UHGV virus genome: UHGV-0105321
Reading direction: 5' to 3' (one strand)
Source: a virus
DNA: 24,512 nucleotides
Shown: one piece after another, positions 8,184 to 18,290 of the stretch
How the letters are laid out: the number at the start of each line of letters is the position of its first letter
How positions within the stretch are numbered: position 1 is the stretch's first letter
Notes under the pieces: model-generated
Seen by the model: only the letters and a program-made list of their open reading frames with translations
What the model was told of the DNA's origin: nothing
The model's database searches: none
Made by a program: the position numbers and the translations under genes

Positions 8184-8891
8184 TCACGAACTTTTCAGCC
8201 ACTCCCTTGCCTCGATGTCATCCAGATGGCGAGATTGCTTCAGAATACCAGCTACATACTCCACCTTTGCTACTTGATGATAAGGCAACGTTATAGGCCT
8301 GTGATCCTGGTTAATGCTTGTAAATTGGTATTCTCCATCTCTGTCATAGCCAAGAACCTTAATCATGTTGTGTCCTTCAACGGTTCTGACAAACACCTCA
8401 TCACCCGGGAATACTTTGGTGTTAGGCTCAATGAGTACATATTCTCCTGATTTTATTCTGGGCCACATGCTGTCTCCTTTCACACGAAGACCAAAGGCAT
8501 CTGGATCATCGCTATAAATTTTGAGCCACCCATCGCGCTCTTCGGTCATCTCGATGGCACCATCAACACCAAGAATTGCCTCACCAACCACGCGCACTAA
8601 CCCTTTTTTTAATTTGCCAACAAATGAAAGAGTATCTTCATCATTCGCTCCATTTAACGAAGTGCCGTGCTGAAGCCAAACAACATCAACGTTTAGAAAT
8701 TTCGCAAGCGCATTCATTTTTTCCTGACGCGGTAAAGACTCAGCATTAAACCATTTGCTAACGCCTTTGGACGAAAGAGAAAGGGCACGGGCTATAGCCA
8801 TTCCCCTACCATGTTCATCAAGACCAGCTTCTTTACAGGCTTGCGCTAGCCGCTGGGCGAATTCTTTGCGCACTTTTTCATTCTGAACCAT
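8184..8891 (-). CDS. cI: CI-type prophage repressor: N-terminal HTH plus C-terminal LexA-like S24 self-cleaving domain, 235 aa
   Basis: HTH-like segment GRGMAIARALSLSSKGVSKW; C-terminal GDSMWPRI...GEYVLIEP...GDEVFV...GHNMIKVL typical of the S24 fold; no Shine-Dalgarno before the ATG, as for leaderless lambda cI; divergent from cro. Confidence 0.88.
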   Translation of the reverse strand: MVQNEKVRKEFAQRLAQACKEAGLDEHGRGMAIARALSLSSKGVSKWFNAESLPRQEKMNALAKFLNVDVVWLQHGTSLNGANDEDTLSFVGKLKKGLVRVVGEAILGVDGAIEMTEERDGWLKIYSDDPDAFGLRVKGDSMWPRIKSGEYVLIEPNTKVFPGDEVFVRTVEGHNMIKVLGYDRDGEYQFTSINQDHRPITLPYHQVAKVEYVAGILKQSRHLDDIEAREWLKSS

Positions 8892-8969
8892 GAGTACGAT
8901 ACTAAAGCACTTGCAAAAACTTTCAGTTCAACCATAATACGTACTGAAAGTACGAAAAAGGATATTCCT
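8892..8969. promoter_or_regulatory. OR-type divergent control region: pR candidate (TTGCAA at 8911..8916, 17-nt spacer, ATAATA at 8934..8939) and a perfect 6-3-6 palindrome CGTACTGAAAGTACG (8940..8954)
   Basis: Near-consensus sigma-70 elements at correct spacing upstream of cro; palindrome overlaps the -10/+1 region; related ACTAAAG / CTTTCAGT half-sites further upstream. Confidence 0.6.
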
Positions 8970-9197
8970 ATGCAAAATCTTGATGAGCCGATTAAAGGTG
9001 TCGGCATCCCTGAAGTTGCGAAGGCTTGTGGAGTTAGCGAAAGGGCTGTCTATAAGTGGCTCAAAAACGGCTTCCTCCCTAAGACTGAGTTTTTTGGGAA
9101 AACTAAATACGCATCAAAAATCGAAGAGATTTCTGGTGGCAAATATCAAGCAAGCGAAATGCTTGAAATAAGCAAAAAGAACCTTCTGGCTGCATAA
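8970..9197 (+). CDS. cro: Cro-like HTH regulator, 75 aa
   Basis: Divergent from cI across the operator region; HTH-like VAKACGVSERAVYKWLKNG; AAGGA ribosome-binding site. Confidence 0.75.
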   Translation: MQNLDEPIKGVGIPEVAKACGVSERAVYKWLKNGFLPKTEFFGKTKYASKIEEISGGKYQASEMLEISKKNLLAA

Positions 9198-9204
9198 GTA
9201 ACAC

Positions 9205-9250
9205 CGCTCTTTTCACAATGGACATTCGTCCTACGTCGCTGACAAAGCGA
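9205..9250 (+). promoter_or_regulatory. nutR: boxA-like CGCTCTTTT (9205..9213) and boxB hairpin UCGCU-GACAA-AGCGA (9236..9250)
   Basis: boxA-like element just after the cro stop; boxB stem-loop carries the same GACAA loop as nutL with a different stem. Confidence 0.65.
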
Positions 9251-9335
9251 GTCCCAAGATATCTGACCAACTAAGGCCATATGCGTTTCCACGCATACCT
9301 TTCAACTAGCTATTCACTATTGGAAATCATAAGAA

Positions 9336-9632
9336 ATGACACAAACAAGTTACAGCAAACTATCCCAGCGTGACGTTGATCGCGCAGAAACAGATTTACT
9401 CATCAACCTGTCAGCTCTGACGCAAAGGGGACTGGCAAAGATGATTGGCTGCCATGAATCGAAGGTCAGTCGTACCGACTGGCGATACATCGCGGCGATT
9501 TTATGCGCGTTCCAGATGGCATCTGATATCAGTCCGATCAGCCGGGCTTTCCAGCATGCCATTAACGTTCATGCAAATAAAAAACGTCCGGTTGGGGCCG
9601 GACGTTCTGAGCAAATCCTGATGAATATCTGA
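9336..9632 (+). CDS. cII: CII-like transcriptional activator, 98 aa
   Basis: C-terminal ...NKKRPVGAGRSEQILMNI resembles lambda CII ...NKKRPAATERSEQIQMEF; position after cro and nutR. Confidence 0.85.
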   Translation: MTQTSYSKLSQRDVDRAETDLLINLSALTQRGLAKMIGCHESKVSRTDWRYIAAILCAFQMASDISPISRAFQHAINVHANKKRPVGAGRSEQILMNI

Positions 9633-9697
9633 TATTCAGGCAGGGCATGGAGCAATACACGGGAATAATTCTGCCACATCTGGAAGAATTTCGCCAG

Positions 9698-9765
9698 CAA
9701 CAACACCAACCGCAGCAGCCTGAAGCCGATTGGGTTAACCCGGGAGATACCGGGACCGTCTGCGG
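9698..9765 (+). repeat. Direct-repeat copy 1 (about 68 bp) duplicating an internal segment of the downstream initiator gene
   Basis: CAACAACACCAACCGCAGCAGCCTGAAGCCGATTGGGTTAACCCGGGAGATACCGGGACCGTCTGCGG recurs at 10441..10521 with few substitutions and a 23-nt insertion. Confidence 0.75.
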
Positions 9766-9795
9766 TATGGAGTAAATCTTGTATGCGAGGGGACT

Positions 9796-10872
9796 ATGCG
9801 TAATTACGCAACAATTTCACCTCAGTTCTGGTTAGGCGATACAGGGCGAAAACTAAGGAAGTCTGGTCCGGAATGTATGGTAGTGGCGTTGTATATGATG
9901 ACCTCGCCTCATTCCAATATGCTGGGCCTTTATTACCTGCCTGTTTTGTACATTGCTCACGAAACCGGACTTGCTCCTGAAGGGGCTTCTAAGGGGCTTC
10001 AAATGGCTTGCGAGGCTGGTTTTTGCAGCTATGACCATGATTCTGAGGTTGTATGGGTGCATGAAATGGCAGCATGGCAGGTTGGTGAATCGCTGAAACC
10101 TGGCGATAACCGTTGTGCTGGGGTAAGAAATGAATATTCCGCGTTGCTGGAAAATCCTTTTTTATCATCCTTTTATGATAGATATAAGGATGATTTCCAC
10201 CTGGATGTCAGACGTGAATCATGTCGGAAAATTGAAGCCCCTTCAGAGCCCCTTTCAAGCCAAGAACAGGAACAGGAACAGGAAAGGGATAAAACCCTTC
10301 TGGTCCATGGCGAAAAAATCGCCACGGACCCACAGGGGGATTTTTGTCCTGTTCTGACTGAACGTCCAGGACCAGATGGCACGACACCGGAAGCAGATTC
10401 CGGGCGTTGTGTGCAGCAGGTGCTGATCGTCGAACCGGAGCAACAACGCCAACCGCAGCAGCCTGAAGCCGATTCCGCGATGAGCGGGAAGCCGATTGGG
10501 TTAACCCGGGCGATGCCGGGACCGTCTGCGGGACGAGTTGATTATCCTGACGTGTTCGAACGGGTCTGGCGTGAATATCCGCATCGGGCAGGGTCAAACC
10601 CGAAGAAATCCGCGTTCAATGCCTGGAGGGCCAGATTACGCGAAGGGGTGTCACCGGATGTCGTGCTGGATGGCGTGAGGCGTTACGCAAGATACCTGGA
10701 GGCTACCGGGAAAGCGGGAACTGAATTTGTTCAGCAGGCATCGACGTTTTTTGGCCCGAACAGGAATTTCGAAAATCCGTGGTCGCTGCCGAAGGCTGGC
10801 GCAGTCAGCCTGCGTTGCGTGAATCACATTTCTGAACCGGACACCGAAATTCCGCCGGGTTTCAGGGGGTAA
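9796..10872 (+). CDS. Putative replication initiation protein (O position, not lambda O-like in sequence), 358 aa
   Basis: Located between cII and a DnaC-like loader with good ribosome-binding site; contains QEQEQEQE and short reiterated DNA motifs. Function assigned by position only. Confidence 0.55.
   Translation: MRNYATISPQFWLGDTGRKLRKSGPECMVVALYMMTSPHSNMLGLYYLPVLYIAHETGLAPEGASKGLQMACEAGFCSYDHDSEVVWVHEMAAWQVGESLKPGDNRCAGVRNEYSALLENPFLSSFYDRYKDDFHLDVRRESCRKIEAPSEPLSSQEQEQEQERDKTLLVHGEKIATDPQGDFCPVLTERPGPDGTTPEADSGRCVQQVLIVEPEQQRQPQQPEADSAMSGKPIGLTRAMPGPSAGRVDYPDVFERVWREYPHRAGSNPKKSAFNAWRARLREGVSPDVVLDGVRRYARYLEATGKAGTEFVQQASTFFGPNRNFENPWSLPKAGAVSLRCVNHISEPDTEIPPGFRG
10441..10521 (+). repeat. 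Direct-repeat copy 2, inside the initiator coding sequence
   Basis: Matches 9698..9765; contains an internal GAAGCCGATT duplication. Confidence 0.75.
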
Positions 10873-10878
10873 TCAGCC

Positions 10879-11619
10879 ATGAAAAACATTTCGACAGGAG
10901 GGATTCTTGAACGGGTGCGCCGTCTGGCACCACCGCACGTGGCAGCACCGTTCCGGACGACCGACGAATGGCGGGAATGGCAACTGGCTGAGGGCCGGAA
11001 GCGCAGCGAGGAAGTTAACCGCCAGAATCACCAGACGCGGGTTGAAAAAATCCTGAATCGTTCGGGCATCCAGCCGCTTCACAGGAAGTGCTCATTCGGG
11101 AACTACCGGGTGCAGAACGACGGTCAGCGCCATGCTCTGAGCCAGGCGAAATCCATTGTCGATGAATTAATGACCGGTTATACAAACTTCGTGTTCAGCG
11201 GGAATCCGGGAACCGGAAAAAATCATCTGGCGGCGGCTGTGGGTAATCGTCTGCTGAAGGCCGGTAAATCCGTGATAGTGGTCACCGTGGCGGATGTGAT
11301 GAGCGCGTTACATGCCAGCTATGACGACGGACTGTCAGGGGAAAAATTTTTGCGTGAACTGTGCGAAGTGGACCTCCTGGTTCTTGACGAAATTGGCATC
11401 CAGCGTGAGACGAAAAACGAGCAGGTGGTACTGCACCAGATTGTTGACCGCCGGACGGCATCACTGCGCAGTGTCGGGATGCTGACAAACCTGAATCATG
11501 CCGCAATGAGCACGCTTCTTGGTGAGAGGATTATGGACCGGATGACCATGAACGGTGGTCGTTGGGTGAATTTTAACTGGGAGAGCTGGCGGTCAAACGT
11601 TGGACGTCAGGGTATGTGA
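10879..11619 (+). CDS. DnaC/IstB-like AAA+ helicase loader, 246 aa
   Basis: Walker A GNPGTGKNHLAAA and Walker B LLVLDEIG; follows the initiator gene with a 6-nt gap. Confidence 0.85.
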   Translation: MKNISTGGILERVRRLAPPHVAAPFRTTDEWREWQLAEGRKRSEEVNRQNHQTRVEKILNRSGIQPLHRKCSFGNYRVQNDGQRHALSQAKSIVDELMTGYTNFVFSGNPGTGKNHLAAAVGNRLLKAGKSVIVVTVADVMSALHASYDDGLSGEKFLRELCEVDLLVLDEIGIQRETKNEQVVLHQIVDRRTASLRSVGMLTNLNHAAMSTLLGERIMDRMTMNGGRWVNFNWESWRSNVGRQGM

Positions 11620-13707: not shown

Positions 13708-13839
13708 GAGAGTAAACATAACAAATTTGTTATATACATTCAAGGTATGTTGACGACAACACATATCCGGGATTATATTCTTCGCACGCCAGCAAAATCT
13801 GGCGTCGGGATTAGCACCCCGGATATCGAAACGGTGCAT

Positions 13840-13861
13840 AACCGCGCTGGCGGTTTTTTTA
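13840..13861 (+). terminator. Intrinsic terminator (stem AACCGC/GCGGTT, loop GCTG, then T7); tR2-like
   Basis: Short GC hairpin directly followed by TTTTTTT on the plus strand, upstream of the nin region. Confidence 0.5.
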
Positions 13862-14024
13862 TGCGCTAAGCACAGTCACATTCGCGATTTATGGCGGGCT
13901 GTGTGGGGGAGCCGAAAGGCTCGCCGGATGTTTCGACCGGTAGTGCTAACCCCGCACAGTTCGCCACCACGATGATTAGCACCTGAAGGTGGTGAGGTAA
14001 AAATTATCGAAACGCGAGGTCGTT

Positions 14025-17581: not shown

Positions 17582-17804
17582 CTCACAATTCCACAGCTTG
17601 ATGATTGTCTGGCTGCCGGAGAATTTGTTAAAAATTGCATCGCGTGGTGAATCCCCCTCAGCGGCGGGGCATCTGGCAAAGTGTATGATCCAGCGAACAT
17701 GCAAATTCAGTAGCCAGGCTGAATTTACCGGGAGGCACCTGGCACCATGCGACAGACAGAAATTAGGCTATACTTCAGCCCCTCTCCGGAGGGGCTTTTC
17801 TGTG
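17582..17804 (+). repeat. Late-promoter-like unit A: -35 TTGTCT (17605..17610), -10 TAAAAA (17629..17634), conserved hairpin, terminator hairpin 17777..17796 plus T-run
   Basis: Shares block-wise similarity with unit B (18051..18286), including the terminator AGCCCCTCTCCGGAGGGGCU and the motif CACCGGGAGGCACCYGGCACCATGC. Confidence 0.6.
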
Positions 17805-17990
17805 CAGGATGTGTCACAGTTTCCTGAATTCTGAGTACTGTCCTGTTACTCAGGGTGCTATATTTTCTGACGTGATGAAAGTCTGCCGGAAGGCGGAACG
17901 TATCGGAAATGACCCAGTAGAGAAAACGTTGACTCAGATACCGATGCTGAGTTACCGGGAAACCGGCATCACATGACCGCTATCCTTCCA

Positions 17991-18050: not shown

Positions 18051-18286
18051 CTCACAATTCAGGCTGGCGATTATTGTCTGGCCAGCGGGAAGTTTGTTAA
18101 AAAAATATGGCATGGTGAATCCCCTGTGCGGAGGGGCATATCAGCGACAGGTGTTTGGTCACACCCCTTATCCTTTCTGGTGCGGGTTCAGGTGCTGATA
18201 CTGAACTCACCGGGAGGCACCCGGCACCATGCATGAACGGTACATAGCGCTACTCTCCAGCCCCTCTCCGGAGGGGCTTTCTTGTT
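18051..18286 (+). repeat. Late-promoter-like unit B: -35 TTGTCT (18074..18079), -10 TAAAAA (18098..18103), hairpin, terminator 18259..18286
   Basis: Tandem paralogue of unit A; identical terminator stem; compensatory substitutions in the internal hairpin (CCCCT...AGGGG versus CCCC...GGGG). Confidence 0.6.
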
Positions 18287-18290
18287 GGAT

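Follow-up and report, generated by a model that had tools for sequence, protein, structure and literature searches.

A segment of a phage replication initiator gene recurs upstream of it as a variable-number tandem repeat, and a predicted origin lies elsewhere in the gene

The stretch of virus genome UHGV-0105321 analysed here (24,512 nt, hereafter the window) carries, between its cII gene and a replication initiator-type gene that I call rep, a short copy of DNA that also stands inside rep itself. The segment is most aptly called a partial gene duplication, specific to its lineage, that acts like a variable-number tandem repeat, and it is probably a non-functional by-product of a duplication of the DNA coding for the Rep linker, which has since become a variable tandem array. 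The origin of replication is predicted to lie in another part of the same gene, at about 9980-10264, where clusters of the 10-mer AAGGGGCTTC are the predicted binding sites of the initiator. The negative result for iterons in the duplicated segment, taken together with this predicted origin, is of more use than the duplication itself.

Structure of the repeat in the window

Positions 9696-9765 (70 nt) pair with positions 10439-10531 (93 nt) inside rep, which are slightly wider limits than those first given in the original prediction, where a segment of about 68 bp of the initiator gene had been noticed to recur in the cII-initiator intergenic region. This observation is borne out: a global alignment of the upstream copy and the gene copy gives 67/70 identical positions and a single 23-nt gap, and the match falls into two collinear blocks, one of 36 nt (97% identity) and one of 49 nt (92%). 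In locus L011, which encodes a Rep 100% identical to that of the window, these blocks have BLAST E-values of 1e-13 and 2e-16, and the repeat is far beyond chance. The gene context was likewise found as it had been described, and the features concerned are the following.

9696-9765, plus strand: upstream (intergenic) copy of rep linker DNA, the one unit left of an array that numbers 2-3 units in relatives
10439-10531, plus strand: source copy in rep, coding for amino acids 215-246 within a predicted disordered linker, with GAAGCCGATT as a direct repeat at 10465-10474 and 10488-10497
9336-9632, plus strand: cII gene (Pfam Phage_CII, E 1e-25)
9647-9775, plus strand: open reading frame (ORF) of 42 codons (PHROG 2751), made by a region resembling lambda oop and its promoter p_o together with the repeat copy
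9796-10872, plus strand: rep, replication initiator-type gene of 358 amino acids (PHROG 1701 and 3729)

The 23-nt gap corresponds to one GAAGCCGATT plus the 13 nt that separate the two GAAGCCGATT copies (10465 and 10488), and this 10-mer occurs twice in the gene copy, 23 bp apart, and once in the upstream copy, with a further copy at one mismatch at 10390. An internal duplication and CCGGG-rich motifs had been read from the gene segment before, and both are present: the former is the GAAGCCGATT pair, and the latter take the form of a CCCGG-N6-CCGGG element in both copies (9738-9755 and 10504-10521). The repeated segment also contains an 18-bp imperfect palindrome. Homology between the copies begins at AGCAACAAC, and the 63 bp to the left of the repeat show ~32% identity with those to the left of the gene copy in an ungapped manual count. 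The window holds a single upstream unit and the dispersed gene copy, and Tandem Repeats Finder (TRF) reports no periodic array there.

Copy number among relatives

Head-to-tail units and copy-number differences, the marks of a variable-number tandem repeat or segmental duplication, were found in the relatives; the tandem arrangement was not found in the window itself. The cII-rep-dnaC region is 97-99% identical to those of PhiR5_2, phiSTEC1589-Stx1c, POCJ13 and 75/02 Stx, and all four phages carry two tandem upstream units with a 90-bp period. Three units of 90 bp are present in Escherichia coli TOE17 (L009; TRF: 90 bp in 2.7 copies at 99%), and three units of 113 bp, which keep the 23-nt segment, in E. 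coli 23CRST049 (L008; TRF: 113 bp in 2.7 copies at 98%), while a nested 16-bp micro-repeat in the upstream array is variable as well. As in other variable-number tandem repeats, the 90- or 113-bp units of the relatives stand head to tail at 98-99% identity and number one to three; what differs here is that the unit is an internal coding segment of the adjacent gene, and that an extra, dispersed copy lies ~750 bp away. Among 5426 complete E. coli genomes the region is present in 81, with 9 one-copy, ~66 two-copy and 6 other forms, and the 5' half of rep was found in 78.

The two-copy form has an inter-unit spacer, TGAAGATGTGCAGTCACACCAATGTGCAGTC, that the window does not have, which makes the one-copy form the product of a 90-bp contraction; simple duplication of it would not yield the array. 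SCPM-O-B-9427 (one copy) and O104:H4 2011C-3493 (two copies; loci L091 and L092) are free of mismatches over 3198 nt and differ by one clean 90-bp indel. The window, for its part, shows no difference from the two-copy ML35 over cII and the initial 470 nt of rep, and the SCPM/O104 background differs from that of the window and ML35 by 4.4% in cII. Contraction is recurrent. In E. coli SW071619 (L007 2563-2974) recombination has joined the upstream copy to the gene copy with loss of the 5' half of rep, and the gene is annotated as a pseudogene without its N-terminus. A second decayed rep allele, at L093 1664-2757 (E. coli G1/2), is annotated as frameshifted.

Comparison with related prophages, which had been proposed as a check on the upstream copy, gives a divided answer: one to three copies are found where rep is 96-100% identical, and none in any of 74 more distant loci. 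Upstream of rep in the 68-70% identical relatives L016-L025, where the state before the duplication was sought, the neighbourhood is unrelated and uninformative.

The module belongs with the Eru4 replication region of Shiga toxin (Stx) phages, for which Shigella phage 75/02 Stx is the type phage (Fagerlund et al. 2022, PMC8951638). The window region is 97% identical to 75/02 Stx and POCJ13 in the same gene order, and differs from the type phage in having one upstream unit and not two. PhiR5_2 (PV340546.1) matches 89% of the window at 99.2% identity; this match spans 33.6 kb of the phage in 8 pieces, and the two therefore differ by several kilobases of insertions and deletions.

Derivation from the rep linker

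The linker and the C-terminal half of rep, from ~10391 onwards, are shared at 82% nucleotide identity with Tritos-type phages (window 10391-10872 only), whose rep genes have an unrelated N-terminal domain and no upstream copy. The linker segment is also present in L016-L025, where rep is 68-70% identical overall and again has no upstream copy. Relative to L005 and L016-L025, the linker of the window lineage has a compensated frameshift (10475-10525): the distance between the GAAGCCGAT repeats is 23 nt in place of 24, and a base has been gained at CCGGGACCG. As a result, ~17 codons are read in the other frame (MSGKPIGLTRAMPGPSAG vs IQREADRVVPENTGQPVG). In the upstream copy, which lacks the 23 nt, the small ORF follows the ancestral frame (EADWVNPGDTGTVCG). 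The extra base at CCGGGACCG is common to the upstream copies and to the gene of this lineage, and the 23-nt state is also shared in 23CRST049. Because these lineage-specific indels are shared, the upstream copies derive from this lineage's own rep gene. Other variants are genome-specific and again common to upstream and gene copies, namely GATGCC in all four 23CRST049 copies and GAAGCC in the window lineage. The inter-unit spacer is weakly similar to positions 10409-10450 of the gene, which suggests an original unit of ~112 nt of gene sequence. The linker already tolerates the compensated frameshift and length changes of an (EQ)n run.

A mosaic joint is seen at ~10391, inside linker-coding DNA, where the similarity to the Tritos-type genes begins. 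These genes have intragenic iterons of their own (GTCACG; L005 2037-2075 and 2297-2345), in two clusters 260 bp apart with ~10-bp spacing. Since the unrelated N-terminal domain comes with its own iterons, the DNA-binding domain and the iterons move together, exchanged as one cassette through the DNA that codes for the disordered linker. Conserved linker or 'boundary' sequences serve as module-exchange joints in lambdoid phages, as laid out in the modular theory of Susskind and Botstein. The rep linker DNA is likewise a joint, 82% shared between unrelated N-terminal domains and iterons; classical boundary sequences are single conserved junctions, whereas here the joint has also been copied upstream as an array.

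Interpretation of the duplication

In the duplication reading that I favour, ~70-113 bp of disordered-linker DNA would have been copied from the resident rep to a place between the oop/p_o-like region and the rep ribosome-binding site, where it would have become a short tandem array with units of 113 or 90 bp that grows and shrinks by unequal homologous recombination or replication slippage. The window carries the fully contracted one-copy allele, left by a 90-bp deletion between two units. For the molecular route of the first copy, I infer either a tandem partial duplication followed by a deletion or the remnant of an exchange of the N-terminal cassette, and the segment would be without function. 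Its consequences are a small ORF of variable length and frame, a longer cII-rep leader, and direct repeats of 70-93 bp that bracket the N-terminal-domain and origin part of rep, between which recombination can delete that part and so inactivate replication. The scar is probably an ordinary one, neutral to mildly harmful, and matters little other than as an unstable, lineage-restricted route by which prophages lose their replication gene.

Several points weigh against this reading. No zero-copy allele, that is, rep without an upstream copy, was seen among the E. coli census genomes or the close relatives; one copy could be needed, or there could be no homology for the exact deletion of the last one. 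The variants shared between upstream and gene copies, which I attribute to gene conversion, would also fit selection for identity. The compared sequences are 93-100% identical and give little power to detect weak selection. Judged from the sequence, finally, a regulatory side-effect is possible, because the copy starts immediately upstream of the -35 hexamer of the inferred p_o and lies 30 nt from the start of rep.

An unlikely alternative, although it deserves to be weighed, is that the upstream linker and the start of the small ORF are the remains of an earlier rep, the N-terminal domain and origin of which were displaced when a cassette of the present ribosome-binding site, N-terminal domain and iterons came in by recombination through the shared linker. 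The sharing of 10391-10872 with Tritos-type genes of different N-terminal domain and iterons would be in keeping with this, since it makes the linker a real mosaic joint, as would the repeat copies bracketing exactly the exchangeable cassette 9766-10438, and the position of the small ORF's ATG within the oop 5' region, near the start of lambda O. The upstream copies, however, carry the indels of the resident lineage, and the last upstream unit of 23CRST049 differs from the gene copy at ~1 of 93 positions, so that the foreign gene would have to have been near-identical or since homogenised. Moreover, no rep protein among 5.8 billion proteins starts with MEQYTGIILPHLEEF, a start shared by small ORFs only, and a tandem array is not predicted by a single replacement event.

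The cII junction and possible regulation

The replication module has its left mosaic boundary at the cII stop, ~9632, where homology to other lambdoid phages ceases, and from there ~63 bp of oop/p_o-like region follow before the repeat begins. The suggestion that the segment is a recombination scar marking the joint between immunity and replication modules therefore survives in part: it does look like a scar, but one that sits off the joint, with the oop/p_o-like region in between. Two features of this region matter here.

9576-9660, minus strand: oop-like antisense RNA, with a terminator stem-loop at 9608 to 9581 followed by a T-run; its 5' end is placed near 9660 by alignment with lambda
9668-9696, minus strand: p_o-like promoter, placed by alignment with lambda, with an extended -10 element TGgCAGAAT (hexamer 9673 to 9668) and the -35 hexamer TGGCGA (9696 to 9691)

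As in oop, the terminator lies inside the 3' end of cII and the body of the RNA is antisense to cII. The Rfam search gave no oop match and only a weak one to AgvB (20.7 bits against a cut-off of 56), mostly over the terminator, and at a permissive threshold only chance-level MIR7532 and AgvB were returned over 8800-11000. The window hexamers TGGCGA/CAGAAT, with an extended TG, align with TTGAGT/CATAAT of lambda, which I take, from a reading of the lambda sequence, to mark the position of p_o and which are unannotated in the record. They fall below the threshold of the consensus scan, which reported no promoter in the region, and both are unchanged in 23CRST049. A search by eye for a CII box (TTGC-N6-TTGC) found none, and a LexA-box-like string, CTG-N10-CAG, which matches 11/16 consensus positions, stands in the spacer between the units of two-copy relatives but not in the window.

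There is a slim chance that the array is a cis-regulatory spacer or contingency locus, in which the number of units tunes rep translation through coupling to the small ORF, or p_o activity, and with it prophage stability. The repeat beginning directly at the inferred promoter would suit such a role, as would the small ORF, which is tightly packed between cII and rep with its stop 20 nt before the rep ATG, and the recurrent change of copy number on identical backgrounds with no zero-copy allele seen. On the other side, the ORF ends in varied frames and places, ~290 nt before rep in 23CRST049, so that coupling is not conserved; folding of the one-copy and two-copy cII-rep leaders gave no significant RNA structure (z = -1.5 and -0.9), the consensus scan is without a promoter, and the array is confined to one narrow lineage. 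Slimmer again is the chance of the specific version in which the array sets initiator translation or the anti-cII RNA, and hence the balance between lysogeny and induction of Eru4-type prophages. If this were true, the affected prophages would include some that carry Shiga toxin genes, and the flanking direct repeats would be a built-in off-switch for replication by deletion of the origin cassette.

Iterons and the predicted origin

The exact 10-mer AAGGGGCTTC occurs three times in the window, all of them in rep (9980 and 9991 on the plus strand, 10234 on the minus strand), with a two-mismatch copy at 10245 on the minus strand. These sites form two clusters around an AT-rich stretch.

9980-10011, plus strand: iteron cluster 1, consisting of AAGGGGCTTCT, AAGGGGCTTCA and a degenerate third unit with an 11-bp period; predicted initiator-binding sites
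10130-10200, no strand: AT-rich stretch between the iteron clusters, with a GC minimum of 33% at 10140-10199; candidate unwinding region
10234-10264, minus strand: iteron cluster 2, inverted relative to cluster 1, consisting of AAGGGGCTTC (10234-10243), AAGGGGCTCT (10245-10254) and then a degenerate unit

A family survey of 80 related IMG/VR loci, with N-terminal domains 48-100% identical, found the motif near both +185 and +440 of rep in 80/80 loci, and at least two copies in both places in 74/80. Successive iterons are spaced by 11 bp in 194 cases, against 10 cases each at 10 bp and 12 bp, and motif density is 15.9 per kb in the clusters versus 0.65 per kb elsewhere in the loci. Cluster 2 is inverted in 52 loci, direct in 17 and mixed in 11; because the motif is fixed in place while its strand flips, it is selected as DNA. 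A (GAACAG)n microsatellite at 10264-10284, directly after cluster 2, encodes the (EQ)n run. It stands at the same position in L001-L004, L008 and L009, and close relatives differ in how many units they have (rep 358-362 amino acids; matched lengths 663-687 bp). The motif, whose DNA sequence is conserved throughout the family, is a possible component of the origin.

In 16/80 loci (e.g. L026, L027, L037 and L042) a third AAGGGGCTTC cluster immediately precedes the rep ATG (-50 to -10); it is absent in the window lineage, and is possibly an autoregulatory site. Iteron sets on both sides of the initiator gene occur in P1-type and other iteron plasmids. The distant rep lineages with the third cluster are alike in this respect; the upstream element of the window is by contrast a linker copy, whose match to the iteron matrix is at background.

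This matrix was built from 172 distinct family sites and scanned over the window, where the iterons score 18-19.6 bits and the degenerate fourth one 13.1 bits. The original prediction had offered iteron-like initiator-binding sequence as one explanation of the duplicated segment, and this is not supported. The GAAGCCGATT sites of the segment score 5-6.8 bits, while the rest of the window has 0.9 sites per kb of at least 5 bits. Nor were the iteron periodicity and adjacent AT-rich region that had been proposed as checks found there: neither 11-bp periodicity nor a periodic array (TRF) was detected in the segment, where GAAGCCGATT alone is repeated, the gene copy, 200-450 bp downstream of the iteron clusters, lies in DNA of 62-67% GC and the upstream copy in 55-57% GC with no AT-rich neighbour, and the AT-rich minimum is the one between the clusters. 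It is very improbable, then, that the duplicated segment serves as a binding site for Rep in origin function or autoregulation. A resemblance does exist, in that GAAGCCGATT matches the reverse complement of the true iteron (GAAGCCCCTT) at 8/10 positions, its three sites rank 5th-7th in 9600-10900 against the family matrix, and the segment contains the imperfect palindrome; both mismatches, however, fall in the nearly invariant GGGG core, the GAAGCCGAT repeats are also present in Tritos-type genes with a different DNA-binding domain and GTCACG iterons, and the 74 distant loci without an upstream copy all keep their AAGGGGCTTC clusters.

An origin inside the initiator gene, as in lambda O, had also been put forward, and this part of the idea appears correct, although the predicted origin is in another part of the gene than the duplicated segment. 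The lambda ori lies inside gene O (NC_001416), with four 18-bp iterons and an AT-rich region in the linker-coding part. Likewise, rep has intragenic reiterated sites and an AT-rich stretch, and stands downstream of cII and oop; it differs from O in that its sites are spaced by 11 bp, form two clusters flanking the AT-rich stretch and lie in the part coding for the N-terminal domain, and in that its partner is a DnaC-like ATPase and not lambda P. Eru modules are classified by their proteins, and the replication of Eru phages was stated to be wholly unknown in the 2022 survey (PMC8951638); the words 'repeat' and 'iteron' do not occur in the texts of the Eru papers, this one included. Literature searches on the iteron sequence AAGGGGCTTC gave only unrelated papers among the matches listed, and those on POCJ13 or Eru4 with iterons or origin gave nothing on this module among the matches listed. 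The AAGGGGCTTC signature provides a testable predicted origin for the replication modules of Eru4-type Stx phages.

The small open reading frame

The 42-codon ORF created by the upstream copy had been regarded as incidental, and its variation agrees with this. In two-copy phages it has 72 codons (4 phages), and a search with the 72-residue form against the 5.8 billion proteins returned ten clusters, all small E. coli ORFs, and no longer protein with the same N-terminus that could point to an older gene. Homologues have lengths of 42, 46, 51, 58, 62, 72, 76, 88 and 102 residues with at least four C-terminal frames. In 23CRST049 the frame stops after 37 codons (manual translation), and no ORF is annotated. 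Between the window and 23CRST049 the first 28 codons show 5 nonsynonymous and 0 synonymous substitutions, small numbers that agree with a lack of constraint and correspond to ~0.076 changes per nonsynonymous site, versus 0.005-0.025 (pN) in neighbouring genes, where the ratio to changes per synonymous site (pN/pS) is 0.1-0.5.

The first 17 codons share their DNA with a stretch whose other strand aligns with the lambda cII-O junction, and their conservation is explained by this overlap with the oop 5' end and the p_o hexamers. That the ORF is a real gene with a functional linker-like peptide is accordingly hard to credit: it has a PHROGs entry and several records annotate it, its ATG follows an AGG/GAGGG motif in the window and in 23CRST049, and the first ~28 residues are largely conserved among homologues, but it is found in E. 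coli only, with all five substitutions nonsynonymous and its length and frame as variable as stated, and has no Pfam or NCBIfam match. The duplication thus accounts for PHROG 2751 as an over-annotated 'hypothetical protein'.

Rep and its partner gene

The two PHROGs matched by rep are named 'DnaD-like helicase loader' and 'replication initiation protein'. An AlphaFold model of Rep built on 26 homologues has a folded N-terminal domain (10-134), a stretch at pLDDT <50 (145-247) and a helical C-terminal domain (250-320). Searching the PDB with this fold returned only weak winged-helix-type matches (E >= 0.09), which are suggestive of a DNA-binding N-terminal domain. No Pfam family matched at E <= 0.01; membership of the lambda O family was rejected, as the Phage_rep_O domain was not found. 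Identity with DnaT (primosomal protein I) was rejected too, at 15.6 bits against a cut-off of 201, with only the last 24-28 residues aligned. The C-terminal tail of Rep (...NHISEPDTEIPPGFRG, 10795-10872, residues ~334-358) resembles the C-terminus of DnaT at E 0.008-0.03, and this tail explains the annotation 'primosomal protein I' in some records. The partner gene follows directly.

10879-11619, plus strand: gene for a DnaC-like helicase loader, downstream partner of rep

Other elements in the window

At 13773-13971 on the plus strand, Rfam matches at gathering level were obtained for isrK and for C4 antisense RNA with its a1/b1 targets, and by sequence this region reads as a P1/P7-type antisense immunity element; beside it, the opposite strand carries a toxin-antitoxin-like gene pair. 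Two tandem copies of the small RNA STnc100 lie further downstream, at 17612-17805 and 18081-18289 on the plus strand, with scores of 139 and 130 bits.

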